From sequence record NC_054911.1: a DNA stretch of 64,000 bases; one strand, written 5' to 3'. A model generated the notes under the pieces. That model did not search any database. It was not told the origin of the DNA and saw only the letters and a list, made by a program, of their open reading frames with translations. This DNA comes from Escherichia phage ECO4. The translations under genes were made by a program, and so were the position numbers. Below are positions 19,019-62,777 of this stretch, in pieces (within the stretch, counting starts at the first letter, position 1; each line of letters starts with the position of its first letter).

Positions 19019-19033
19019 TCTTTGACGATTTAA

Positions 19034-19062
19034 GGGACCTTCGGGTCCCTTTAGTTGTTTTT
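19034..19062 (+). terminator. rho-independent terminator after gene 23 (CUUCGG-type hairpin plus U-run)
   Basis: GGGACC-TTCG-GGTCCC followed by TTTAGTTGTTTTTAT. Confidence 0.75.
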
Positions 19063-19066
19063 ATGG

Positions 19067-19074
19067 TATAAATA
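19067..19074 (+). promoter_or_regulatory. T4 late promoter TATAAATA for gene 24
   Basis: Exact TATAAATA just after the gene 23 terminator, 27 nt before gp24 ATG. Confidence 0.7.
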
Positions 19075-19101
19075 AATCATATAAACTGAAAGGAAAGCGC
19101 A

Positions 19102-21998: not shown

Positions 21999-23417
21999 TT
22001 ATGGATAAGTATAGATGATACCAGTTTCTAAAGCAGTTTTATGGATGATGTATCCATTACGTGATTCTTGAACATCAACTTCTGGATAATCTTTCATCAT
22101 CTTCTGAAGCGTATAACGATGCAAGTAGTACTTACTATCTGGATCTTCAGTTTTCCAATCTTTACCTTCTTCAGTCATTTTTTGGATTTCATCCATAACC
22201 CACCAACCGCACCAGATATAAGCTGAAGTACGATGTGGAAGAGGATGAACATAAGGCAATTCACCTTCTGGTTCCGGAGCAACTTTATCAGTTACCTGAA
22301 CTTGACCTGTTGTTTTAACTGTTTTGCTATCATAGTCAGTTGCTGTAACGACAGCAGTAACTTCAATAGTTTGACTTCCAACAGATGAGGTATCAACAGT
22401 ATATACGTTAGTTGACCCTTCTACAGGAGAAGAATCTTTCTTCCATGAGTAAGTAATTTGTGCTTCTTCTGGAGCATCCGTAACATTAGCAGTAAATGTA
22501 GCCGAAGCATCTTGCTGAACGTTAATAGAAGGAGGAGTCAATGTAACCTGTGGATTCATTGTCTTCTTATTAACTGTCAATGATACTTCATTAGAAGTAA
22601 CTTCCTTTTCATTGTAATTTTCTGCTGTTACTTGGGCTACGCATTTAATTCTTTTTACTCCACTTGTAGTTGGAGTATAGCTAAATGTAGAGCTAGTTTC
22701 TCCACCAACTTGTGAATCATCTACATACCACTGATACGTAGCAGATGCTCCATCAGGTTGAGAAGCTAAGGCAGCAGTAAATTGAACTGGGGTTCCAATT
22801 ACTCCAGCTGAAGGACTAGCAGGAGTTACTGCCAATGTAGTTGTCTGTGTCTTTTTATTAACAGTCAGTGATACTTCATTAGAAGTAACGGTTTTTTCAT
22901 CATAATTTGTCGCGGTTACTTGAGCTACACACTTGATTTTTTTAACTCCGCTTGCGGCAGGAGTGTAATTGAATGTAGCAGAAGTCGCTTCGTCTACAGG
23001 AGAACTGTCAACGTACCATTGATACGTAGCAGATGCACCTGATGGCTGCGAAGCTAAAGCAGCGGTAAATTTAACAGCTGTTCCAATTACTCCTGCTGGA
23101 GGACTATTGGGAGTTACGGCTAAGGTAGTCGTCTGAGTTTTGTTTTTGACTGTGATAGTTGTAGTAGCTTCTGCTGTTTCAGCTTCAGATTCTGGAACTG
23201 TATTTGTTGCAACAACTTTAATAGTCTTTTGACCAGCAGGACCTTTTAATACATAATCAAAAGTTGCTTCAGACCCATCTTGTGGAGCATTATCTACACT
23301 CCAAGCATAAGTAATAGTTCCACCTCCAGTTTCACCACTAGGTGCAGCAGTAAACTGCTTGGTTTCATCAATAACTCCTGACGGTGTTTTAGGAGTTATA
23401 TCAACTGTAAAAGCCAT
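21999..23417 (-). CDS. hoc: highly immunogenic outer capsid protein Hoc, 472 aa with four tandem Ig-like domains plus C-terminal capsid-binding domain
   Basis: N-terminus MAFTVDITPKTP and C-terminal YIWCGWWVMDEIQKMTEEGKDW capsid-binding region typical of Hoc; ~96-aa Ig-like repeats; about 96 aa longer than T4 Hoc (376 aa). Confidence 0.93.
   Translation of the reverse strand: MAFTVDITPKTPSGVIDETKQFTAAPSGETGGGTITYAWSVDNAPQDGSEATFDYVLKGPAGQKTIKVVATNTVPESEAETAEATTTITVKNKTQTTTLAVTPNSPPAGVIGTAVKFTAALASQPSGASATYQWYVDSSPVDEATSATFNYTPAASGVKKIKCVAQVTATNYDEKTVTSNEVSLTVNKKTQTTTLAVTPASPSAGVIGTPVQFTAALASQPDGASATYQWYVDDSQVGGETSSTFSYTPTTSGVKRIKCVAQVTAENYNEKEVTSNEVSLTVNKKTMNPQVTLTPPSINVQQDASATFTANVTDAPEEAQITYSWKKDSSPVEGSTNVYTVDTSSVGSQTIEVTAVVTATDYDSKTVKTTGQVQVTDKVAPEPEGELPYVHPLPHRTSAYIWCGWWVMDEIQKMTEEGKDWKTEDPDSKYYLHRYTLQKMMKDYPEVDVQESRNGYIIHKTALETGIIYTYP
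22566..23141 (-). repeat. tandem direct repeat, two diverged 288-bp units encoding Hoc Ig-like domains 2 and 3
   Basis: Protein residues 93-188 and 189-284 are the same length and highly similar (KTQTTTLAVTP...SNEVSLTVNK); DNA units 22854-23141 and 22566-22853 are clearly related but diverged (identity not computed). Confidence 0.75.
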
Positions 23418-23426
23418 AAGTTATCC

Positions 23427-24107
23427 TTATTTTAATGTTACGAAAGAAGAATTGCGTGTTTCACGAATTAAAACTGATCCGTCGCGATTAATGTAATAAA
23501 TTAAGCTAAACAAAGTTTGGTGTGCTGACGCGTGTTCAAAACTAGTTGGGTGAGATTTCCAATCCGGAGTTTCAGCAATCCACTGGTAAATCCACCAAGG
23601 AACGGTACAGAATCCTGGATTTTTTCCAATCAACTGAAGATTCGGACTAAAGTTTTCCGGAAGAGTAAATACAGACGGCTTTTCAGATTCAATAATCTCA
23701 GCTACAGCCTGTTCGAATTTTTCTTCAACAAAAGGAGTATCTTCAATTAAAACAGTAGTATTTTCAGGAATTTTATCCGTTTCTACTACTTCAATTTTAA
23801 TGTCAGATTTAACCGGAGAATCAATCAGAAGTGCTGCCTCTGGATTGACTTCTTCATCGTCATATTTTAATCCGTCTGCGGCATCAGCAGCATCAATTAA
23901 GTCTTTAATAGATAACCCATCAGTCTCTGGCATAGGTTCACTAGCGAGCTTCTGGAGAGCTTCTTCAATATCATTAACGATATTATCAAAAGATTTATTC
24001 TTTTTGACCTTTATACCAAACTGTTCAGCGTATTCAGCTAATTTAGCTTTAGCTTCTTTATTATCATCAAGAGCCTTCAGCTCTGCAATATAATCTTTAT
24101 CTATCAT
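23427..24107 (-). CDS. inh: inhibitor of prohead protease Inh
   Basis: 226-aa ORF downstream of hoc (T4 Inh is 226 aa); acidic N-terminal half. Confidence 0.85.
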   Translation of the reverse strand: MIDKDYIAELKALDDNKEAKAKLAEYAEQFGIKVKKNKSFDNIVNDIEEALQKLASEPMPETDGLSIKDLIDAADAADGLKYDDEEVNPEAALLIDSPVKSDIKIEVVETDKIPENTTVLIEDTPFVEEKFEQAVAEIIESEKPSVFTLPENFSPNLQLIGKNPGFCTVPWWIYQWIAETPDWKSHPTSFEHASAHQTLFSLIYYINRDGSVLIRETRNSSFVTLK

Positions 24108-24120
24108 AATATTTCCTCAG

Positions 24121-24128
24121 TATAAATA
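24121..24128 (+). promoter_or_regulatory. T4 late promoter TATAAATA upstream of the seg endonuclease gene
   Basis: Exact TATAAATA 28 nt before the seg ATG. Confidence 0.55.
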
Positions 24129-24156
24129 TAGATATATTTATTACTCGGAAAATAGT

Positions 24157-24774
24157 ATGTACCACTTTGTATATGAAACAACAAATCTAATAAATGGTAA
24201 AAAGTATATAGGAAAACACTCTACTGATGACTTGAATGATGGTTACCTTGGTTCCGGTAAGGCAATTCAGCAGGCTATAAAGAAATATGGTGAAAACAAT
24301 TTCTCTAGAACAATACTAAAAGAGTTTAAAACTTCCGAAGAAGCGTACATGTATGAAGAAGAAATTATAACTCCTGAAATAATAAAAAGCAAAAATTATT
24401 ATAATATGAAACCTGGTGGAATTGGTGGAATTGTTATGACTACAGAGGTTATAGCAAAGATGAAAGAATCTTCCGCTAAGAGATTTGAAAACTCACCGGG
24501 CACGGTATTAGGTACAACTTGTTACACTAATGGAACTAAAAATATTTTTATTAAACCTGGAGAACTTGTTCCAGAAGGATTTGTAAAAGGGATGGTTCAT
24601 CCTAATAGAAAGTCCAGAAAAGGATGTAAAGTCAAACCAACTACCACAGGAACTTTTTGGGTCAATAATGGTGCAATAAATAAATTAATACAACCAGACG
24701 GTATTATTCCCGACGGATTTATTAAAGGTCGTCTCATGAAAAGAGATTCTAAAGGCAAATTTAGTAAGGCATAA
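24157..24774 (+). CDS. segE: free-standing GIY-YIG homing endonuclease (Seg family)
   Basis: 205-aa ORF with N-terminal GIY-YIG motif (HFVYETTN...GKKYIGKH) and basic C-terminal DNA-binding half; sits between inh and uvsW with its own TATAAATA; segE versus segD naming is uncertain. Confidence 0.8.
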   Translation: MYHFVYETTNLINGKKYIGKHSTDDLNDGYLGSGKAIQQAIKKYGENNFSRTILKEFKTSEEAYMYEEEIITPEIIKSKNYYNMKPGGIGGIVMTTEVIAKMKESSAKRFENSPGTVLGTTCYTNGTKNIFIKPGELVPEGFVKGMVHPNRKSRKGCKVKPTTTGTFWVNNGAINKLIQPDGIIPDGFIKGRLMKRDSKGKFSKA

Positions 24775-24776
24775 TT

Positions 24777-26285
24777 ATGGATATTAAAGTACATTTTCAC
24801 GACTTCAGCCATGTACGCATCGATTGTGAAGAGAGCACGTTCCACGAATTAAGAGATTTCTTTTCGTTTGAGGCCGATGGATATAGGTTTAATCCTCGCT
24901 TCAGATATGGCAACTGGGATGGACGAATCCGTCTTTTAGATTATAATCGTCTTCTTCCATTCGGCTTAGTCGGGCAAATTAAAAAGTTCTGTGATAACTT
25001 TGGCTATAAAGCCTGGATTGACCCACAAATTAACGAAAAAGAAGAATTATCAAGAAAAGATTTTGATGAATGGCTTTCTAAATTAGAAATCTATTCAGGA
25101 AATAAAAGAATTGAACCACACTGGTATCAAAAAGATGCAGTGTTCGAAGGATTAGTTAATCGTCGTAGAATTCTTAATCTTCCAACATCTGCAGGTAAAT
25201 CTTTAATTCAGGCTCTGCTTGCGCGATATTATTTGGAAAATTATGAAGGTAAAATTCTTATCATTGTTCCAACAACTGCTCTGACAACTCAGATGGCTGA
25301 TGACTTTGTTGATTATCGTTTATTCAGTCACGCAATGATAAAGAAAATTGGTGGCGGAGCATCAAAAGATGATAAATATAAAAATGATGCACCAGTCGTT
25401 GTTGGTACATGGCAAACTGTAGTAAAACAACCAAAAGAATGGTTCTCACAGTTTGGAATGATGATGAATGATGAATGTCATCTTGCTACAGGAAAAAGTA
25501 TTTCATCTATCATATCAGGTTTAAATAACTGCATGTTCAAATTTGGTCTATCTGGTTCATTACGTGACGGCAAAGCCAATATCATGCAGTATGTTGGAAT
25601 GTTTGGCGAAATATTTAAGCCAGTAACGACTTCTAAGTTAATGGAAGATGGGCAAGTAACTGAGCTAAAAATTAATAGTATTTTTCTTCGTTATCCTGAT
25701 GAGTTCACTACTAAATTAAAGGGAAAAACTTACCAAGAAGAAATAAAAATTATTACTGGGCTCAGTAAAAGAAATAAATGGATAGCTAAATTAGCTATTA
25801 AGCTTGCGCAAAAAGATGAAAACGCTTTTGTCATGTTTAAACATGTATCACATGGTAAAGCTATTTTCGATTTAATTAAAAATGAATACGATAAAGTTTA
25901 TTACGTATCAGGGGAAGTTGATACCGAAACCCGCAATATAATGAAAACCTTAGCTGAAAATGGCAAAGGAATAATTATAGTAGCTAGTTATGGTGTATTT
26001 TCTACTGGTATTTCAGTTAAAAATCTGCATCACGTTGTTTTAGCGCACGGTGTTAAATCAAAAATCATTGTATTACAAACAATCGGTCGTGTATTACGTA
26101 AGCATGGTTCTAAGACAATAGCAACAGTCTGGGACCTCATAGATGACTGTGGTGTTAAGCCAAAATCTGCTAATACGAAAAAGAAATATGTTCATTTGAA
26201 CTATCTTTTAAAACACGGCATTGATCGTATTCAGCGCTACGCAGATGAAAAATTCAATTACGTAATGAAAACAGTTAATTTATAA
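24777..26285 (+). CDS. uvsW: UvsW RNA-DNA / DNA helicase
   Basis: 502-aa ORF with SF2 helicase motifs (PTSAGKS Walker A, DECH box); T4 UvsW size. Confidence 0.95.
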   Translation: MDIKVHFHDFSHVRIDCEESTFHELRDFFSFEADGYRFNPRFRYGNWDGRIRLLDYNRLLPFGLVGQIKKFCDNFGYKAWIDPQINEKEELSRKDFDEWLSKLEIYSGNKRIEPHWYQKDAVFEGLVNRRRILNLPTSAGKSLIQALLARYYLENYEGKILIIVPTTALTTQMADDFVDYRLFSHAMIKKIGGGASKDDKYKNDAPVVVGTWQTVVKQPKEWFSQFGMMMNDECHLATGKSISSIISGLNNCMFKFGLSGSLRDGKANIMQYVGMFGEIFKPVTTSKLMEDGQVTELKINSIFLRYPDEFTTKLKGKTYQEEIKIITGLSKRNKWIAKLAIKLAQKDENAFVMFKHVSHGKAIFDLIKNEYDKVYYVSGEVDTETRNIMKTLAENGKGIIIVASYGVFSTGISVKNLHHVVLAHGVKSKIIVLQTIGRVLRKHGSKTIATVWDLIDDCGVKPKSANTKKKYVHLNYLLKHGIDRIQRYADEKFNYVMKTVNL

Positions 26286-26310
26286 GGGCTTCGGCCCTTT
26301 GGAGAAAAAG

Positions 26311-26544
26311 ATGTTACTAGAATTTAAACAATTTCTTTATGAAGCTTCTATTGATGAATTTATGGGTAAAATTGCCTCTTGTCAAACATTAGAAGGTTTA
26401 GAAGAACTTGAAGCTTATTATAAGAAAAGAGTCAAAGAAACTGAATTAAAAGACACTGATGACATCTCTGTGAGAGATGCTTTAGCAGGAAAAAGAGCTG
26501 AATTAGAAGATTCAGACGATGATGAAGTAGAAGAAAGCTTTTAA
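26311..26544 (+). CDS. uvsW.1: UvsW.1 small acidic protein
   Basis: 77-aa ORF from ATG 26311 (MLLEFKQFLYEA) with GGAG SD; track start 26299 is a TTG extension. Confidence 0.8.
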   Translation: MLLEFKQFLYEASIDEFMGKIASCQTLEGLEELEAYYKKRVKETELKDTDDISVRDALAGKRAELEDSDDDEVEESF

Positions 26545-35164: not shown

Positions 35165-35194
35165 ACTATAACACAACACGAGGGACTTGTAAAC
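35165..35194 (-). promoter_or_regulatory. T4 early-type promoter (GTTTAC -35, TATAGT -10), copy A of the 54-bp cassette
   Basis: Coding-strand GTTTAC, 18 nt, TATAGT, then leader and GAGGA SD to ATG 35133. Confidence 0.6.
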
Positions 35195-37251
35195 TACATT
35201 TTGAACTTTTTAGACATTCCGTTGATGTTAACCAAAGAAGCTAAGATTTGAGAAACTTCGTTTTCCTCTTCTTTTGATTCTTCTACAAGGAATTGATTAA
35301 ATCCAGCCATTGGACGAACTTCACCAGTTTCCATTAGATGGTCGCCATCATATACTGATTCTTCTAATTGTTCAGAAGGAGGAACGATTGTACCTTCGAT
35401 TAGATACTTGTTATAAGCAGTTTCTTTCATAAAGTAAGTACTTACTTTATTAATCTTCAGTAAAATTCCACGTGGTAGAATAACTTCAGCTTCTGATGGA
35501 AATCCTGACAAATGACCTGGAACGATAACTTTAACTCGTTCAGCTCCTTTAATTACCATACCCACGCTAGTTTCAGCATCTTCATTAGCATATGTAGAAT
35601 GACTACCCATATGCATCAAATCTTCTGCATCAACGGAACCTTCTCCTTCACCAGAAAATACTGCTCCGGAATCATCTAAGGCCATATAATTTTTACCATA
35701 CTCACCAAAGATATTTGGTTTAAGTGATGTAGATACGAAGTTCTTGAAATAGAACATTTTATTTTCAATGTTATGACGCAAAGTTTTAAAAGTAACTTCT
35801 TGTCCACGGTAAAGTGTAGTTCCTGGAGGAAGAACTGAACCTTTAGCAAACGCAGAATCCATAGTCTCGATGTGCTTAATAGCGCGCTCCATGTATTCTT
35901 CACGTGTAGAATCAGGTTTACCTAAAAGGAATGAGTTCATTTCAACATACGAATCTGCACAATAATCTTCAATTACATCAGATTCAGCCTGAGTCAATCC
36001 TTTTGGAGTTACTTCAGTGCTTGCATATTCATACGCCTGAGCAGCGGATTCATCAATTAATTTATAAATGCCATTCATGACAAATTGAATAATAGCTGTC
36101 TTTTCATCTGGCGTAGCTTTAGAACCTTTAACTAAATCATTGACAATTTTCTTAATAACATCAAAGCTATTAGAAATATTAATGTCAGCAAGATCGCTTA
36201 AAATTTTATCAGTTTTATAATCAAAAAATTCTTTATTCTTTAAATATTCTTGAGAACTTTGATATGTTATATCGCTCTGCAACTTGATAGATGGATCACG
36301 TAAACGTGCATGGGCTAATGCAATATGATTTCGGAAGCTTTCTAGTTCATAATCACTAGATTTAAAACGAGAAGCACTCCTCATACCACCGATAGCTCCT
36401 TTGCCGAAGTTTGAACCAATCTGAATAACGCCAGAGTTCATTGGTCCTTCTGCTTTATATACCGGAACTTTAGATTCAAACTCTTGATATTTCTTAGCAG
36501 CAAAGCTATCACCCTGAAGTGAAGCATCAACAGTAGAATATTGAGCTTGTGCTGCTAATCGACGACTAATTTTAGTTTTCTGAATAACAGCTTGATCCGT
36601 ACGCTTATCATTTTCTAAAGCAATAGAAGCAGCAACTGCGACAGCTTTAGGAACAGCATTACCTGTTTTAACGTCTACATAAACATCACCGACTTTCGAT
36701 TCAACTTTTGTGAATAACTCAGTTGAAATAGGAGGTACACCTGGAATGTCTTCTAAATTGGCATTTTTACGGTAAACCATAATATATGCATATTTCTTAT
36801 CATAGTCCCAGATTTCCTTTAAAAGAACATATCGACCTGCTCCTTTAGTACGTACTAAACGGTCAGCAATAACTTGCATTTGACGAGCAGCGCCATTTGT
36901 TTTACTTTTTAGTACGCGGAATAGGCATGCATCAATTTTATACTGTTTCATTGTTTGAAGAGCAGTATCAAAAACCGCATTAATGACACCAATTGGATTT
37001 CCACCCAAATTTTTAAGCTTAACTAACGATAATTTCTCATTAACACCTATCATTACGATATGCATCATTTTGTCGCCTGGCTTAACGTTTTTATTCGTAT
37101 CACCGCCAGAGGTGTATGTACAAAATCGAAATCCAGGAAGAACGCTTTCTTCACCGGCTTGAATAGCAAAAATTTGAGGTATTTTATGCTTAGGATTTAA
37201 GTTAACAACCGGCGCCGAAGCGCCGTCAAATAATTCTGTAATAAGTTCCAT
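35194..37251 (-). CDS. Alt-family mono-ADP-ribosyltransferase paralogue (685 aa)
   Basis: N-terminus MELITELFDGASAPVVNLNP shared with the upstream paralogue; C-terminal ART signature (Arg in TLYRGQ, STS in FVSTSL, catalytic EAE in EAEVILPRG). Confidence 0.85.
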   Translation of the reverse strand: MELITELFDGASAPVVNLNPKHKIPQIFAIQAGEESVLPGFRFCTYTSGGDTNKNVKPGDKMMHIVMIGVNEKLSLVKLKNLGGNPIGVINAVFDTALQTMKQYKIDACLFRVLKSKTNGAARQMQVIADRLVRTKGAGRYVLLKEIWDYDKKYAYIMVYRKNANLEDIPGVPPISTELFTKVESKVGDVYVDVKTGNAVPKAVAVAASIALENDKRTDQAVIQKTKISRRLAAQAQYSTVDASLQGDSFAAKKYQEFESKVPVYKAEGPMNSGVIQIGSNFGKGAIGGMRSASRFKSSDYELESFRNHIALAHARLRDPSIKLQSDITYQSSQEYLKNKEFFDYKTDKILSDLADINISNSFDVIKKIVNDLVKGSKATPDEKTAIIQFVMNGIYKLIDESAAQAYEYASTEVTPKGLTQAESDVIEDYCADSYVEMNSFLLGKPDSTREEYMERAIKHIETMDSAFAKGSVLPPGTTLYRGQEVTFKTLRHNIENKMFYFKNFVSTSLKPNIFGEYGKNYMALDDSGAVFSGEGEGSVDAEDLMHMGSHSTYANEDAETSVGMVIKGAERVKVIVPGHLSGFPSEAEVILPRGILLKINKVSTYFMKETAYNKYLIEGTIVPPSEQLEESVYDGDHLMETGEVRPMAGFNQFLVEESKEEENEVSQILASLVNINGMSKKFKM

Positions 37252-37254
37252 GAT

Positions 37255-39351
37255 TTATCCTTGAACGAACTTGTAAGGCATGTTTGTAATATCTATGCAA
37301 GACGCAATAATTCCAAGAGATGATTCTACTTTCTGTTTAACATTTGATGAAACAAATGATGCAAAGTCAACTCTATCTTCTATTTCAATATCACCTGTCA
37401 TTGCAACTACTTCACCGGTTTCCATTAAATGGTCTCCGTCATAGATTACCGATTCGGTGAGCTCTTCCGTGGTCATAACTTCAGCTTGAATGAGTTTTGT
37501 ATTATTAGATGTTGTTCCGTCATTATTAGAAGCATCAGTTATTTTATTAACTTTGACCATCAATCCACGCGGTAGAATAACTTCAGCTTCTGTTGCTATT
37601 CCGAGACTTCCTGGATATACAACATTAACTTTATGAGCTCCATCAATTGCCCATCCTATTTGAACTTTAACGTATTCAGGATTTTCTTTATACGCTCTTA
37701 TTTCGTTTGGATTAATAGTTATTCCTTCTTCATTTTTATCAACTGTTAATTCATTGCGAGCTTCTGGTTCTAAAAGACCAATACCAGCATGTGTGATTCC
37801 AAAACGTCCAAAAATGATAGGAGTTAAAGAAGTAGATACAAAATTTCTGAAGTAGAACACTTTATTTTTAACTAACGCTTCATATATAGGAGCAGTCATA
37901 CTTTGAGCACGATAAACTGTAATGCCTTCTGGTATACGGTCACCATTTTCAAAAGCTGAATCTAAGTTATTTATAGCAGATTCAATTTCTTTTTCACTCA
38001 TTACATCATATCGTTCTGGATTGTAACGACCTAAAAGAAGATTATTGATGTCAGTATATCCTGAACCGCAATATTCTCTAATGCCACGCTTTTGTGATGG
38101 AGTATATTTAGAACCATCGCGGGCAATAGTAATATCAATCATTGGACCAGCACCAATTCCAGAAAAACTGTAAATCATTCGTTTGAGGAATTTAGTTTTT
38201 GCTGCGTTCCAGGAATTTTTAGTTATTTCTTCCCAGACTTCATCTGGTTGTCCTTTACGATTTTTATTATGATTAGCAAGCCATTTATCTTTATAATCTT
38301 CAAAGAATTGATTTACAGCTGCTGCGTATTTCTCTAAACATTTTATTGAAGTAGTTGGTTCATTTTTAATTGCATTAAAAATTACTTCTTTAATTTTTTC
38401 TGAAACTTCACCGACTTGACTCATTGGAAAGAATTTATAATCATAGTGAAGTTCATCTGCCGTTCCTTCAGCAATAATTTTTGCTGCCTTTGTTTTAGAA
38501 GCTAATGAATTAATTCCAATTTTCATTTCTTCTGCTTCGGGAATTAAAGGTGCAGTAGCTGGTTTATTAAAATTAGCTGCTGTAGATTCATACTTCTGGA
38601 ATAATTCACTTTCAAATCTAGAAGATTCCAATGACTGACTTTGTGCAATTGCTCTACGGGAAATTTTAACTTTAACGATTACGGCTTGGTCAGAACGTTT
38701 ATCATTTTCTTGTGCAATAGATGCAGCAATTGCCTCATTTTTGGTTACTTGAGCTCCAGTATCTTTATTGATATAAACATCACCGACCTTCGATTCAACT
38801 TTAGTAAAAAGCTCGGTGCTAATTTCTGGAACTCCTGGAATGTCTTCTAGTGATACATTTTTACGATGTATAAGAATATATGCATACTTTTTATCGTAAT
38901 CCCAGAGTTCCTTAAGAAGGACGTATCTGCCACCTGAACGACTGCGGATGAGTCTATCAGCAATAAGTTGAATTTGTCGAGCTTGACCGGCGGTTTTAGA
39001 CTTAAGAATACGAAGCATGCAGGCATCAATTTTATATTGACGCATTGTTTGCATTGCAACAGTAAAAACTGAATTGATATAATTAATCGGGCTTGGACCA
39101 AGACCTTTTAATTTAGCAATTGAACCTTTAGCAGTTAATGTAAAAGGAACAATGTGCATCATTTTATCGCCCATCTTTAAATCACGATTAGTATCACCTC
39201 CAGATGTATAGGTACATAAACGAAAGCCTGGTTGTTCAATTGCATCATCAACATGAACTGAAAAAATTTGTGGTATTTTCTTCTTTGGATTTAAGTTTGT
39301 AATCGGAAGAGTAGTATCTTCGTCAAATAATTCTGTAATGAGTTCCATCAT
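37255..39351 (-). CDS. alt: Alt ADP-ribosyltransferase (698 aa), packaged internal head protein
   Basis: N-terminus MMELITELFDEDTTLPITNLNP; R-S-E ART motifs (TVYRAQ, FVSTSL, EAEVILPRG); late TATAAATA promoter upstream; position next to gene 30. Confidence 0.88.
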   Translation of the reverse strand: MMELITELFDEDTTLPITNLNPKKKIPQIFSVHVDDAIEQPGFRLCTYTSGGDTNRDLKMGDKMMHIVPFTLTAKGSIAKLKGLGPSPINYINSVFTVAMQTMRQYKIDACMLRILKSKTAGQARQIQLIADRLIRSRSGGRYVLLKELWDYDKKYAYILIHRKNVSLEDIPGVPEISTELFTKVESKVGDVYINKDTGAQVTKNEAIAASIAQENDKRSDQAVIVKVKISRRAIAQSQSLESSRFESELFQKYESTAANFNKPATAPLIPEAEEMKIGINSLASKTKAAKIIAEGTADELHYDYKFFPMSQVGEVSEKIKEVIFNAIKNEPTTSIKCLEKYAAAVNQFFEDYKDKWLANHNKNRKGQPDEVWEEITKNSWNAAKTKFLKRMIYSFSGIGAGPMIDITIARDGSKYTPSQKRGIREYCGSGYTDINNLLLGRYNPERYDVMSEKEIESAINNLDSAFENGDRIPEGITVYRAQSMTAPIYEALVKNKVFYFRNFVSTSLTPIIFGRFGITHAGIGLLEPEARNELTVDKNEEGITINPNEIRAYKENPEYVKVQIGWAIDGAHKVNVVYPGSLGIATEAEVILPRGLMVKVNKITDASNNDGTTSNNTKLIQAEVMTTEELTESVIYDGDHLMETGEVVAMTGDIEIEDRVDFASFVSSNVKQKVESSLGIIASCIDITNMPYKFVQG

Positions 39352-47696: not shown

Positions 47697-49086
<1,390 letters not shown>

Positions 49087-49090
<4 letters not shown>

Positions 49091-52136: not shown

Positions 52137-53315
52137 TTAAAAGTATTTTTTAAAACTCATCATAACTTTATCATCAACATCATTATCAATCTGTGCAACA
52201 AGATAAGATGACAGTTCTACTTCTTGCGGCGCGGATTGAACATTATCAGAATTAAGGTATTCACGAATCCAAGGATATGGATGTTTAACCGGAGCATCGG
52301 TAATCGGGCATGGAAGACCACACTGTTTCATACGAGATACAGTTAAGTAATCAATAAAGCTCCACATGCTATTTGTATTTAATCCAGGAACATCGCCATC
52401 TTTAAATAAATGAACTGCCCAATCTTTTTCTTGGCGGTTAACTTCCATGAAAATATCAACTGCTTCTTGTTCACACTCTTTGGCAATTTTAACCCATTCA
52501 TCGCCATCAGTACCAGATTGAAGTTGACGAATAATATATTGTGTACCTTTAAGATGAAGCTGCTCATCACGTGCAATAAATTTCATAATCTTCGCATTAC
52601 CTTCCATGATTTCCATGTTCTTATGGAAGTTGAAAGTACATGCAAAGGATACATAAAAACGAATAGCTTCCAATGCGTTGATTACATGCAGACAAAGGTA
52701 AAGAGAACGCATTAGTTCGTATTTGCATTCTTCTACATGCATAAGGCTATTTGAATATGCGTCCAAATCATATTCATTCTCTGAAAAACACCTAAAAATT
52801 TCTTTTGCGTTTTCCCATTCACGAGTTTTCTCAATAACATCATCATAATAACGACCAATAGATTCAGCACGTTTCATGATAGCTTTATCTAATACAATCT
52901 CATCAAATACCTTTGACGGATCAGTATAAAGATTTCGCATGATATGAGTATATGAACGACTGTGAATAGTTTCACTAAAAGTCCATGTAGCAACCCATGT
53001 ATCAAGGCTTGGATCTGAAATTAATGACATAAGTACAGCAGACGGTGCACGACCCTGAATGCTATCTAAAAGTGATTGATACTTCAGGTTATTAGTAAAA
53101 ATATCTTGCTGATACTGGGGAAGCTTGTTAAATTGTGCAGCATCCATCATCAAGTTTACTTCTTCAGGACGCCAGAAAAAACTGATCTGCCGCTCAATGA
53201 GTTCTTCAAATACTCGATGTCGTTGAATATCATATCGAGCTAAACCTAATCCAGAACCAAAGAACATTGGTTCGTTCAAAACATCGACTTGTTGTGTATT
53301 AAAAACTGTACTCAT
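52137..53315 (-). CDS. nrdB: ribonucleotide reductase small subunit NrdB, intronless
   Basis: Continuous 392-aa ORF with R2 diiron/tyrosyl-radical fold features; no intron interruption (T4 reference has one). Confidence 0.95.
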   Translation of the reverse strand: MSTVFNTQQVDVLNEPMFFGSGLGLARYDIQRHRVFEELIERQISFFWRPEEVNLMMDAAQFNKLPQYQQDIFTNNLKYQSLLDSIQGRAPSAVLMSLISDPSLDTWVATWTFSETIHSRSYTHIMRNLYTDPSKVFDEIVLDKAIMKRAESIGRYYDDVIEKTREWENAKEIFRCFSENEYDLDAYSNSLMHVEECKYELMRSLYLCLHVINALEAIRFYVSFACTFNFHKNMEIMEGNAKIMKFIARDEQLHLKGTQYIIRQLQSGTDGDEWVKIAKECEQEAVDIFMEVNRQEKDWAVHLFKDGDVPGLNTNSMWSFIDYLTVSRMKQCGLPCPITDAPVKHPYPWIREYLNSDNVQSAPQEVELSSYLVAQIDNDVDDKVMMSFKKYF

Positions 53316-54010
53316 TTAGAATCCTTAAATTTACATTTATCATAATGCCATCTTAGAGCATTGCCTTTATTAACTTTCTTGCCACAATGCGGACAAGGTG
53401 GATATTCAGTACTTTGCTTAGTTCTCAAAGAAATCAAATCACGAGTTTCTTTAGTATGAGGAACATCTCTTGTTGGAGATATTGTACCATACATAGGATT
53501 AAGCACGCCGACTTTAGCAGCAGCTATATTCTTTTTAGCTTCTTCAGTTTTAGGCTTTCTCATCTTTTTCTTAGTTTCTTCGCTTTTAGCCCTTCCTTTG
53601 GTTGCCGCCGATATTTTGTGTTTGGTTTCTTCTGTTAAACGCAGACCTGTTTTCGCTTTTGACATTTTCAGTCTCGTTTCTTCAGAAATGACCGTACCTT
53701 TGCGAAATTGTGAATTTAACTTCTTTGCATGGGCATATATTTTAGAATGAACTTTATAATGACGTTTCTTAGTTCCTTTCATATTGCACATCATGAAAAA
53801 TGCGAATATAACAGATTTTACCGGATAAATCTTTGATAAAATAGCATGCGCTATAAAATGTTCTCTAGCTGTTAATTCAACTAAATTTTCTTTATCATCA
53901 GAACCTCCCATGCATCTAGGAACTATATGATGTGTCTCTTTATATTCAGATAAAGGTTCCCGAGCCTGAGCTCGGGAAATTAGGTCGTTATAGATTTTTT
54001 GATAATTCAT
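53312..54010 (-). CDS. mobE: HNH homing endonuclease between nrdA and nrdB (MobE-like)
   Basis: 232-aa ORF; HNH motif ETHHIVPRCMGGSDDKENLVELTAREHFIAH; repeated basic EET+xK+S..KG modules; start and stop overlap nrdA stop and nrdB start. Confidence 0.85.
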   Translation of the reverse strand: MNYQKIYNDLISRAQAREPLSEYKETHHIVPRCMGGSDDKENLVELTAREHFIAHAILSKIYPVKSVIFAFFMMCNMKGTKKRHYKVHSKIYAHAKKLNSQFRKGTVISEETRLKMSKAKTGLRLTEETKHKISAATKGRAKSEETKKKMRKPKTEEAKKNIAAAKVGVLNPMYGTISPTRDVPHTKETRDLISLRTKQSTEYPPCPHCGKKVNKGNALRWHYDKCKFKDSK

Positions 54011-57143: not shown

Positions 57144-58159
57144 CATTATGTTCAGATAAGGTCGTTAATCTTACCCCGGAATTATATCCAGCTGCATGTC
57201 ACCATGCAGATCAGACTATATCTCCAACTTGTTAAAGCAAGTTGTCTATCGTTTCGAGTCACTTGACCCTACTCCCCAAAGGGATAGTCGTTAGGCATTT
57301 ATGTAGAACCAATTCCATTTATCAGATTTTACACGATAAGTAACTAATCCAGACGAAATTTTAAAATGTCTAGCTGCATCTGCTGCACAATCAAAAATAA
57401 CCCCATCACATGAAATCTTTTTAATATTACTAGGCTTTTTACCTTTCATCTTTTCTGATATTTTAGATTTAGTTATGTCTGAATGCTTATGATTAAAGAA
57501 TGAATTATTTTCACCTGAACGATTTCTGCATTTACTACAAGTATAAGCAGAAGTTTGTATGCGAACACCGCACTTACAAAACTTATGGGTTTCTGGATTC
57601 CAACGCCCGTTTTTACTTCCGGGTTTACTGTAAAGAGCTTTCCGACCATCAGGTCCAAGTTTAAGCATCTTAGCTTTAACAGTTTCAGAACGTTTCTTAA
57701 TAATTTCTTCTTTTAATGGATGCGTAGAACATGTATCACCAAACGTTGCATCAGCAATATTGTATCCATTAATTTTAGAATTAAGCTCTTTAATCCAAAA
57801 ATTTTCTCGTTCAATAATCAAATCTTTCTCATATGGAATTTCTTCCAAAATAGAACATTCAAACACATTACCATGTTTGTTAAAAGACCTCTGAAGCTTT
57901 ATAGAAGAATGGCATCCTTTTTCTAAATCTTTAAAATGCCTCTTCCATCTCTTTTCAAAATCTTTAGCACTTCCTACATATACTTTATTGTTTAAAGTAT
58001 TTTTAATCTGATAAATTCCGCTTTTCATAAATACCTCTTTAAATATAGAAGTATTTATTAAAGGGCAGTCCTACAATTTAGCACGGGATTGTCTACTAGA
58101 GAGGTTCCCCGTTTAGATAGATTACAAGTATAAGTCACCTTATACTCAGGCCTCAATTA
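57144..58159 (-). ncRNA. group I self-splicing intron of td (1016 nt)
   Basis: 5' end TAATTGAGGCCTGAGTATAAGGTGAC directly after exon-1 ...TTGGGT, 3' end ...GAACATAATG before exon 2; matches the T4 td intron I recall; contains the I-TevI ORF. Confidence 0.92.
57291..58028 (-). CDS. I-TevI: intron-encoded GIY-YIG homing endonuclease I-TevI
   Basis: 245-aa ORF, MKSGIYQIKNTLNNKVYVGSAKDFEKRWKRH, recognised as I-TevI; located inside the td intron. Confidence 0.96.
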   Translation of the reverse strand: MKSGIYQIKNTLNNKVYVGSAKDFEKRWKRHFKDLEKGCHSSIKLQRSFNKHGNVFECSILEEIPYEKDLIIERENFWIKELNSKINGYNIADATFGDTCSTHPLKEEIIKKRSETVKAKMLKLGPDGRKALYSKPGSKNGRWNPETHKFCKCGVRIQTSAYTCSKCRNRSGENNSFFNHKHSDITKSKISEKMKGKKPSNIKKISCDGVIFDCAADAARHFKISSGLVTYRVKSDKWNWFYINA

Positions 58160-58753: not shown

Positions 58754-59101
58754 TCAATACGGTTTAGCATCAAATTTTCTCTCAATTTCAGGCGTGAAAT
58801 ATAATTCTTTACCGCGTTTGGAAAAGCGACCAATAATATGATAATTATTCTCATCAAACGTGATATTACCAATATCCATAGCTTTCAACCAAATATCGAT
58901 ATTTCTATCCAGCTTTATGTCAAAATTCCAATACGGAGAACTATTACCGAAAATACTACAAGCGGATTCAGTGAAACAACTGCTATAAATCTTGTCTTTA
59001 GGAACTACTAATTGATAGACACCTTTAATAAACTGAGGACCCTGCCACTTTGGCTGTTTCTCATCTTTTTCTAATAGAATAGGGTAATAATTAAAATTCA
59101 T
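58754..59101 (-). CDS. ORFan (115 aa) inserted between frd and td
   Basis: ATG 59101 lies 19 nt after the frd stop; no recognisable motif; flanked upstream by GC-rich CGCGCGGCGG and downstream by a promoter-like TATTATAAT and SD before td. Confidence 0.65.
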   Translation of the reverse strand: MNFNYYPILLEKDEKQPKWQGPQFIKGVYQLVVPKDKIYSSCFTESACSIFGNSSPYWNFDIKLDRNIDIWLKAMDIGNITFDENNYHIIGRFSKRGKELYFTPEIERKFDAKPY

Positions 59102-59120: not shown

Positions 59121-59943
<823 letters not shown>

Positions 59944-59947
<4 letters not shown>

Positions 59948-60303
59948 ATTACCTCCCACTGAAAGGGGCCAGAAGCAAATCCGCTATCTTTAATCATTTT
60001 AACTAAAGTTACCATTCCTCTGTTAACTGCTTGCGAGATTTCATCAAAAACTTCATCACTATCACCATAAAGATCGCTAAAAAGTTCTAACACGTTCTTC
60101 TGAACTTTTAATTTACAGCCAACAAATTCGCCTACAGTAAATTCGTTTCCGCCAACTCCAGCGTAAAACGTAATTACACCAGTTAATGGTCTTTCACTAG
60201 AACATAGGTCGTGTGATAAATTAATATAAGCCGTCCCGGGTGCAGTTTTAAGTTGGCAACGAATACTTACTCGAGCAATTCCAGCTACACGAATGTCAGA
60301 CAT
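59944..60303 (-). CDS. hypothetical protein
   Basis: 119-aa ORF; ATGA stop/start overlap with downstream gene; may correspond to T4 frd.2. Confidence 0.7.
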
Positions 60304-62738: not shown

Positions 62739-62761
62739 TGGTCAGTGAGATAATTATAATC

Positions 62762-62769
62762 TATTTATA
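62762..62769 (-). promoter_or_regulatory. T4 late promoter TATAAATA for gene 32
   Basis: Exact TATAAATA on the coding strand immediately after gp59 stop. Confidence 0.55.
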
Positions 62770-62777
62770 ATAAGCAA

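Follow-up and report, generated by a model that had tools for sequence, protein, structure and literature searches.

The segE locus

In the window, by which we mean the whole stretch of 64,000 nucleotides analysed here, the gap between inh and uvsW is filled by an open reading frame (ORF) of 618 nt, stop codon included, which starts with ATG and encodes 205 amino acids; hoc lies further to the left. Position 24,108 is the first base past the inh start codon, and the spacer from inh to the ORF measures 49 nt. The genes of the locus are as follows:

23427–24107, minus strand: inh
24157–24774, plus strand: segE coding sequence, 205 aa and stop (202/205 identity to T4 SegE, NP_049795)
24777–26285, plus strand: uvsW helicase gene, the SegE target gene in segE-less phages (PMC2988022)

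A preliminary description of this DNA had recorded a 205-aa ORF with a GIY-YIG N terminus and a basic C-terminal half between inh and uvsW, and had stated that a seg-type endonuclease is reported from that site in T4. All of these elements lie where it placed them, and the T4 gene between inh and uvsW is segE, whose product matches the protein of the window at 202 of 205 residues without gaps. The three substitutions (I75L, E97D and T120K) are conservative, and none of them falls in a column conserved among 60 homologues. The order inh-segE-uvsW is identical in T4 (NC_000866), with segE on the uvsW strand and an ORF of equal length; T4 SegE shares with its counterpart here the length of 205 aa, the inh (hoc.1)/uvsW site, the leader and the 2-nt spacing to uvsW. 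At the DNA level, the 669 bp comprising the spacer, leader and ORF match those of Serratia phage PhiZZ30 at 100% identity and those of T4 at 98.8%; over 2.9 kb around segE, the window shares 98% identity with many Tequatrovirus genomes in which segE or a 'homing endonuclease' is annotated. The protein scores 37.6 bits against Pfam PF19835 SegE_GIY-YIG (cutoff 25) and matches PHROG 314 'homing endonuclease' at E 9e-44. The gene is free-standing: it is intergenic, with no intron or intein, and segE-less relatives have inh next to uvsW, with a 50-nt spacer between them and uvsW uninterrupted.

Because of this protein identity and the same neighbours, we assign the ORF, by sequence, as an orthologue of T4 segE and not of segD. 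The comparison with SegD and SegE suggested in the preliminary description separates the two proteins. T4 SegD, encoded between genes 23 and 24, resembles the window protein in the nuclease domain alone (46% identity over 95 aa), where both have an Arg-less 'NDGYxGSG' loop. Its C-terminal half is unrelated, with an I-TevI-like helix-turn-helix end in place of the two β-hairpin/PxGFxKG modules of SegE, and its genomic site and orientation are unlike those of segE. The segE found here is an already known gene, a selfish element that spreads to related phages by means of the nuclease it encodes, in a near-identical copy at its usual place.

The primary work on T4 SegE is that of Kadyrov et al. 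1997, as cited in PMC2988022 and PMC2330249. These two sources describe segE as a free-standing GIY-YIG gene inserted between inh and uvsW, with uvsW as its target and its mobility demonstrated (PMC2988022), and report that T4 SegE cleaves the hoc.1-uvsW region of the segE-less phages RB30 and RB52 and, in T4 × RB30 crosses, drives homing at almost 100% efficiency (PMC2330249). Homing by SegE needs an intact segE and homology, and the flanks are co-converted (PMC2330249). The cleavage site is reported in two ways, as 'uvsW' (PMC2988022) and as the intergenic region between hoc.1 and uvsW (PMC2330249).

A GIY-YIG nuclease domain without an aligned catalytic Arg

The protein divides into two halves:

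24157–24441, plus strand: N-terminal GIY-YIG nuclease domain, aa 1–95 (from PF19835, the family profile, hhalign and the AlphaFold model)
24442–24771, plus strand: basic C-terminal half, aa 96–205, presumed DNA-binding region (pI 10.2)

The N terminus carries the motif FVY(6)-x10-Y(17)IG, in which G19 ends the YIG; Y6, Y17 and G19 are invariant in the 60 homologues, and the AlphaFold model places the GIY and YIG strands at aa 2–10 and 16–23. Mean pLDDT is 85, with values of 93–98 over aa 1–80 and 83 over aa 81–90. The best fold match in the PDB is I-TevI (Foldseek, 1MK0, probability 1.00, TM 0.65 normalised to the target). I-TevI was reached only by this fold search and by a family profile of 60 sequences. 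The best PDB sequence match of the profile is the catalytic domain of I-TevI (1LN0 and 1MK0), a marginal hit at E 0.07, and hhalign of the family against the I-TevI encoded in the window itself gives a probability of 81% at E 1e-5. Single-sequence phmmer against the PDB returned nothing relevant (a tail tube protein and comparable entries ranked highest, with E of at least 0.015), and the general GIY-YIG model PF01541 scored 20.9 bits, just under its cutoff of 22.6.

Both hmmsearch and hhalign pair Y6, Y17, E67 and N83 of SegE with the catalytic residues Y6, Y17, E75 and N90 of I-TevI; N83 is invariant and E67 conserved in at least 90% of the 60 homologous sequences. In neither alignment does R27 of I-TevI have a counterpart, the R27/H31 stretch being replaced by a 9-residue gap. 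In the AlphaFold model, a loop (aa 24–34) occupies the position at which I-TevI has a helix. This Arg-less region is itself well conserved, with D28, Y30, G32-S33-G34 and K43 invariant in the 60 homologues, and T4 SegD also has an Arg-less loop. The preliminary description had called the module canonical, and had named the absence of the core Tyr, Arg or Glu on alignment as grounds for doubting it. 'Canonical' is apt for the two Tyr, the Glu and the Asn, which align, and not for the Arg, which cannot be aligned; on that test the Arg is nominally missing, and Tyr and Glu are present. The missing Arg does not count as a refutation, since reports on the 99%-identical T4 enzyme describe it as cleaving DNA and homing (PMC2330249, PMC2988022). 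Judged by analogy with that enzyme, the Arg-less loop is a property of the SegE/SegD clade and not a sign of inactivity, and the SegE of this phage is almost certainly active. As the catalytic Arg has no aligned counterpart, the aligned residues do not fully explain the active-site chemistry.

The C-terminal half (21 K+R against 8 D+E) contains two modules, each a β-hairpin followed by PxGFxKG, at aa 121–146 (24517–24594) and aa 167–192 (24655–24732), with strands in the AlphaFold model at aa 121–124/129–132 and 167–170/175–178. Both modules are conserved among homologues, and residues G165, W168, G172, G187, G191 and R192 are conserved across the 60 used here. Searches of this half found no Pfam family at E ≤ 1 and, with Foldseek, no PDB fold match. 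We presume that it binds DNA from where it lies in the protein, from its charge and from the modularity of GIY-YIG homing enzymes.

The comparison with I-TevI extends beyond the active site. Like I-TevI, SegE combines the GIY-YIG fold and the aligned Tyr, Tyr, Glu and Asn with a modular build of N-terminal nuclease, linker and C-terminal DNA-binding region, and both home by double-strand-break repair. I-TevI is intron-encoded whereas SegE is free-standing and lacks the R27/H31 helix. Overall, the two sequences resemble each other only marginally (27% identity, profile E about 1e-5), and they have different DNA-binding domains; the C-terminal half of SegE is unlike the zinc-finger/helix-turn-helix tail found in I-TevI and SegD.

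segE lies behind the resident late promoter of uvsW

Upstream of and within segE, we distinguish the following elements:

24108–24144, no strand assigned: conserved inh/uvsW flank, the left homology arm, outside the insert (from identity with segE-less phages)
24121–24128, plus strand: T4-type late promoter motif TATAAATA, an exact match, with the same motif in segE-less relatives
24145–24156, plus strand: insert-specific 5' leader and segE translation initiation region, TCGGAAAATAGT (from alignments)
24675–24682, plus strand: AATAAATA, a one-mismatch late-promoter-like motif within segE, 95 nt before uvsW

The late promoter motif at 24121–24128 had been noted in the preliminary description, and it is indeed an exact match on the plus strand. 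It lies in non-coding DNA, 28 nt upstream of the segE ATG. The 8-mer occurs in 17 exact copies in the window, weakly above the 9.1 ± 2.8 found in shuffled sequences; this particular copy is credible because it is intergenic, in the right orientation and 100% conserved in relatives.

The motif had also been described as segE's own promoter, and here the comparison with segE-less phages speaks against the earlier view. The 37 bp from 24108 to 24144, TATAAATA included, recur with 100% identity in hundreds of Tequatrovirus records without segE, and with 94% identity in the Mosigvirus SA35RD. In segE-less wV7 and SA35RD the motif stands about 29 nt before the uvsW ATG, and in SA35RD it is an annotated late promoter. 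Carriers and non-carriers diverge only from 24145, the left flank being fully identical up to the junction, and the TCGGAAAATAGT leader stands in place of the 13-nt ATGGTATTTAGAC of segE-less phages. A late promoter, moreover, is known to drive UvsW expression (PMC3016281). Since the flank with its promoter is common to segE-less phages, segE sits behind a pre-existing promoter: by its sequence context, TATAAATA is the late promoter that uvsW already had, and segE was inserted downstream of it. That segE is instead a self-contained cassette that brought this promoter along is highly unlikely on the same evidence, although the placement of the motif in non-coding DNA shortly before the segE ATG would suit such a cassette, and a review counts segE among the genes that have an 'endonuclease-specific' promoter within the non-coding DNA upstream (PMC2988022).

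Signals for uvsW lie within segE in turn. Only 2 nt lie between the segE stop and the ATG of uvsW, whose Shine-Dalgarno sequence (AAGG) is inside the last segE codons. Promoters for the downstream gene are also reported to be embedded in segE and to favour its retention (PMC2988022). The motif AATAAATA is a weak candidate for such an embedded uvsW promoter, because one-mismatch versions of TATAAATA occur in the window at chance frequency (189 against 193 expected). A scan of 23900–25000 for sigma-70 promoters and terminators gave nothing above chance. A 5-bp hairpin with a T-run at 24921–24934, inside uvsW, is probably a chance occurrence.

These embedded signals bear on a further possibility, that segE is a decaying or domesticated remnant, an inactive nuclease kept for the uvsW ribosome-binding site and possibly a promoter. 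The Arg absent on alignment, the Shine-Dalgarno sequence and promoter-like AATAAATA inside the gene, and the retention attributed to embedded promoters all lend themselves to this idea. Against them stand a full-length ORF, 99% identical to a T4 enzyme that cleaves DNA and homes, and segE sequences that are 97.8–100% identical across carriers, with no truncations in the sampled rows. The Arg-less loop is conserved across the 60 diverse homologues and T4 SegD, and for that reason is a feature of the clade and not of decay. We regard a remnant as the least probable of the alternatives weighed here, and an intact, functional segE as the reading to carry forward.

A diverged uvsW 5' end is linked to segE

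The segE-linked unit does not end with the gene. Its left boundary is sharp, at 24144/24145, and its right edge lies at about 24912, so that the unit takes in the first ~135 nt of uvsW:

24777–24912, plus strand: diverged uvsW 5' end, a co-converted flank or cleavage-insensitive target allele (from differences with wV7)

Over these first 135 nt, uvsW differs from that of segE-less wV7 at 36 positions (~73% identity); identity is 98–99% further downstream, with 20 differences in the next 900 nt. The differing codons in the block comprise 22 synonymous and 5 non-synonymous ones relative to the segE-less allele, and the N termini differ by one codon (MD... in the carrier, MTD... in segE-less phages). 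T4 has the same linked uvsW 5' allele as the window phage (98.5% identical).

The distribution of the block was followed by allele-specific megablast against 50,697 GenBank phage records, duplicate RefSeq/GenBank entries included; GenBank was used for the population counts because IMG/VR yielded only four close (Tequatrovirus) loci. segE with both flanks is present in 156 records, the diverged uvsW block at ≥95% identity in 156, and the block in continuity with the 3' end of segE in 156–157; the segE-less (empty-site) uvsW allele at ≥95% identity is found in ~335 records. Linkage between the block and segE is complete across GenBank, as judged by matching record totals and not by a per-record table. 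segE itself is patchy among near-identical genomes, and 27 of the 33 related loci examined do not have it.

A similar pattern appears outside the close relatives. In a Mosigvirus-like pair, one locus (L010) carries, at the same site, a segE-like gene with 47% aa identity, which the other (L036/SA35RD) lacks; their uvsW genes are 98.3% identical over nt 150–1500 and 79.3% identical over nt 1–135. Homologues of segE with 64–67% aa identity also lie between inh and uvsW in Salmonella phage STML-198 and a relative. We considered the sampled distant carriers of segE-like genes as the source of the uvsW block and rejected them, as their 67–74% identity to it is no closer than that of the segE-less allele.

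Some segE-less phages have chimeric uvsW 5' ends, of the empty-site type at the start and the carrier type at the end, with three nested breakpoints: at about nt 122 in PD112, about nt 107 in BCPEco_001, and about nt 90 in UFV09, UFV11 and BCH953P4. The segE+-type bases run from the breakpoint to nt 137 only. The reciprocal chimera, in which segE is followed by a block that reverts to the empty-site type, was found in none of the 156 carriers, in each of which the whole block was matched at ≥95% identity and ≥80% coverage. On one reading of these sequences, drawn from few and partly related genomes, the chimeras may be resistance alleles acquired without segE, or short conversion tracts. Nucleotides 90–137 of uvsW correspond to ~24866–24912 in the window.

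The linked block fits the prediction of intron-less homing with co-conversion, and agrees with a target at the uvsW 5' end of which carriers have a re-coded version. It is also conceivable that the diverged block has nothing to do with SegE targeting and is a foreign piece of uvsW, imported with segE and kept by proximity. The differences occur throughout the 135 nt and most of the altered codons are synonymous (22 against 5), as would be expected from a diverged donor, whereas targeted escape mutations would cluster; physical linkage alone could also hold 136 bp to segE. Three observations weigh the other way. First, the ~135-nt pattern recurs in a separate lineage whose segE-like gene is only 47% identical. 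Second, the block does recombine, as the nested chimeras in segE-less phages indicate, yet 0 of 156 segE+ records have a segE-less-type portion, which suggests selection on the allele of the carrier. Third, according to the literature, cleavage occurs at the uvsW 5' end or in the intergenic region, with flanks co-converted. Mere hitchhiking of the block is therefore unlikely in our view, though less remote than a segE with its own promoter. An imported origin and a protective role of the block are compatible, and we favour homing with co-conversion of a re-coded target.

A stronger statement would be that the chimeras map the determinant of SegE sensitivity to uvsW nt ~90–137 and are resistance alleles, and that the SegE/SegD clade catalyses cleavage without the Arg helix, through a residue such as K20, H21 or K43. 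From sequence comparison, this combined proposal is tentative and somewhat doubtful as it stands.

The endonuclease complement of the window

The whole window is collinear with T4 87,470–149,765 by BLAST, and differs from it in its mobile endonucleases. Besides segE, two such genes are present:

53312–54010, minus strand: mobE
57291–58028, minus strand: I-TevI, in the td intron

The segD, segG and nrdB intron of the T4 genome are missing from the window. In place of T4 106522–107310 (segD), genes 23 and 24 are separated by 60 bp (window 19029–19090); T4 138458–139057 (the nrdB intron with I-TevIII) is absent, leaving a precise junction at 52639/52642; and T4 147919–148541 (segG) is absent, with 35 bp between genes 32 and 59 (window 62741–62777). 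Within the window, this bears out the earlier account of the complement, which had mobE and I-TevI present, no seg ORF between 32 and 59 or between 23 and 24, and no nrdB intron. A tblastn search with SegD, SegE, SegG, I-TevI and MobE found only the three known genes and no further endonuclease paralogues in the window. Hidden endonucleases in the other inserts relative to T4 were also considered and rejected, the ORFs of those inserts matching only PHROGs of unknown function.

Discussion

We are highly confident that the ORF between inh and uvsW is segE, the intact gene of a T4-type free-standing GIY-YIG homing endonuclease that works by the mechanism proposed here. Late in infection, segE would be transcribed from TATAAATA, and because this is the resident late promoter of uvsW, segE and uvsW are probably co-transcribed from it. 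On co-infection with a segE-less relative, SegE would cut the DNA of the relative at or near the uvsW 5' end, and the break would be repaired by T4 recombination with the segE+ genome as template. Through this repair the recipient would acquire segE together with the first ~135 nt of uvsW, a case of intron-less homing with co-conversion. The diverged, mostly synonymous uvsW 5' end of the carrier is expected to be a poor substrate for SegE, and we infer that it gives self-protection. In this scheme, cleavage activity, target gene and homing efficiency come from the literature on T4 SegE; the identity to T4 SegE, synteny, insert boundaries, shared promoter, linked block and patchiness come from the present analysis.

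The scheme has a parallel in SegF and SegG, which act in T4 × T2 marker exclusion. Like segE, each is a free-standing GIY-YIG gene that adjoins its target gene, and flanking markers are co-converted into endonuclease-less relatives, according to PMC2330249 and PMC2988022; the diverged block and nested chimeras described here fit this co-conversion model. Unlike segE, these two genes occupy the soc/56 and 32/59 loci and have other targets, and T4 SegG is not significantly similar to SegE (E 1.4).

As a discovery, segE in this phage matters little: it is a textbook case of intron-less homing, carried by about one-third of sequenced T4-type phage records. What is added here is the exact boundaries of the insert, the shared origin of the promoter, the re-coded uvsW block, linked to segE throughout the population, and the Arg-less loop, none of which changes the classification as a known gene. 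The endonuclease complement (segE, mobE and I-TevI, without segD, segG or the nrdB intron) predicts which markers would be imposed on, or lost to, T4 in mixed infection. Finally, the locus is a clear natural example of the way in which a free-standing endonuclease gene becomes part of a genome: segE sits behind the promoter of a host gene, supplies the ribosome-binding site of the gene downstream and carries a re-coded piece of its target gene.

SegE modules and segE-family genes at the inh/uvsW site

The C-terminal half of SegE, the free-standing GIY-YIG homing endonuclease encoded between inh and uvsW, contains two copies of a module consisting of a beta-hairpin followed by PxGFxKG (window 24517-24594 and 24655-24732). 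The module is kept across hundreds of homologues, has no Pfam model and found no match among solved structures. Residues 154-199 of SegE are also matched by PHROG 10820, an HNH endonuclease family.

Diverged members of the segE family also occupy the inh/uvsW site in three of the related loci compared.

segE-family genes at the inh/uvsW site (coordinates in the reverse-complemented locus; amino acid identity)
L010, 1183-1902: 47%, Mosigvirus-like metagenomic contig
L029, 4240-4854: 64%, Salmonella phage STML-198-like genome
L031, 4237-4851: 67%, Salmonella phage STML-198-like genome

The L010 protein has an additional insertion of ~40 aa that separates the nuclease domain from the hairpin modules and, judged by eye, looks NUMOD3-like. 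A segE gene at 97.8% identity, together with the linked uvsW allele, is also present in GenBank MG010123 (32 kb, labelled 'Staphylococcus phage SAJK-IND'), an entry that appears to be mislabelled or contaminated.

Chimeric uvsW alleles

Nested chimeric alleles of the uvsW 5' end (nt 1-140) are found in five phages that lack segE: UFV09 (L037), BCPEco_001 (L038), PD112 (L039), UFV11 (L040) and BCH953P4 (L041). Each begins as the empty-site type and switches to the segE-carrier type at nt ~90, ~107 or ~122. The reciprocal chimera was looked for among segE carriers and not found.

A candidate inh promoter

The following motif lies 28 nt upstream of the inh start.

24135-24142, minus strand: AATAAATA

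It stands back-to-back with TATAAATA, the plus-strand late promoter motif, both within a stretch of 37 bp that is conserved in every relative, and may be a late promoter of inh.

Other differences from T4 in the window

The mobE gene (53312-54010, minus strand) is a single intact HNH ORF of 232 aa (PHROG 655, E 9e-66), whereas the T4 reference annotation divides this interval between a 141-aa mobE and nrdB.1. The alt gene, encoding an ADP-ribosyltransferase, is present as two full-length tandem paralogues of 685 and 698 aa (35194-39351, minus strand), unlike in T4, which has one alt and the short remnants alt.-1/alt.-2. The hoc gene (21999-23417, minus strand) encodes 472 aa, compared with 376 aa for T4 hoc. 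The BLAST alignment runs twice over T4 110748-111053, which points to one extra repeat of ~100 aa, probably Ig-like in view of what is known of Hoc. The long form also occurs in wV7, a segE-less relative.

Small ORFs without a T4 counterpart lie at three places. Their PHROG matches are all to families of unknown function, and none of the ORFs resembles a nuclease.

Small ORFs absent from T4 (all on the minus strand)
58754-59101: between td and frd
59702-60303: between frd and frd.1
48788-49090: between pseT and pseT.1

Finally, uvsW and uvsW.1 are two distinct ORFs in the interval 24777-26544, the first encoding 502 aa and the second lying downstream of it at 26299-26544, whereas the T4 RefSeq annotation still gives a single fused uvsW of 587 aa. 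As resequencing of T4 also yielded two ORFs there (PMC1524935), this difference is a legacy of annotation or sequencing.
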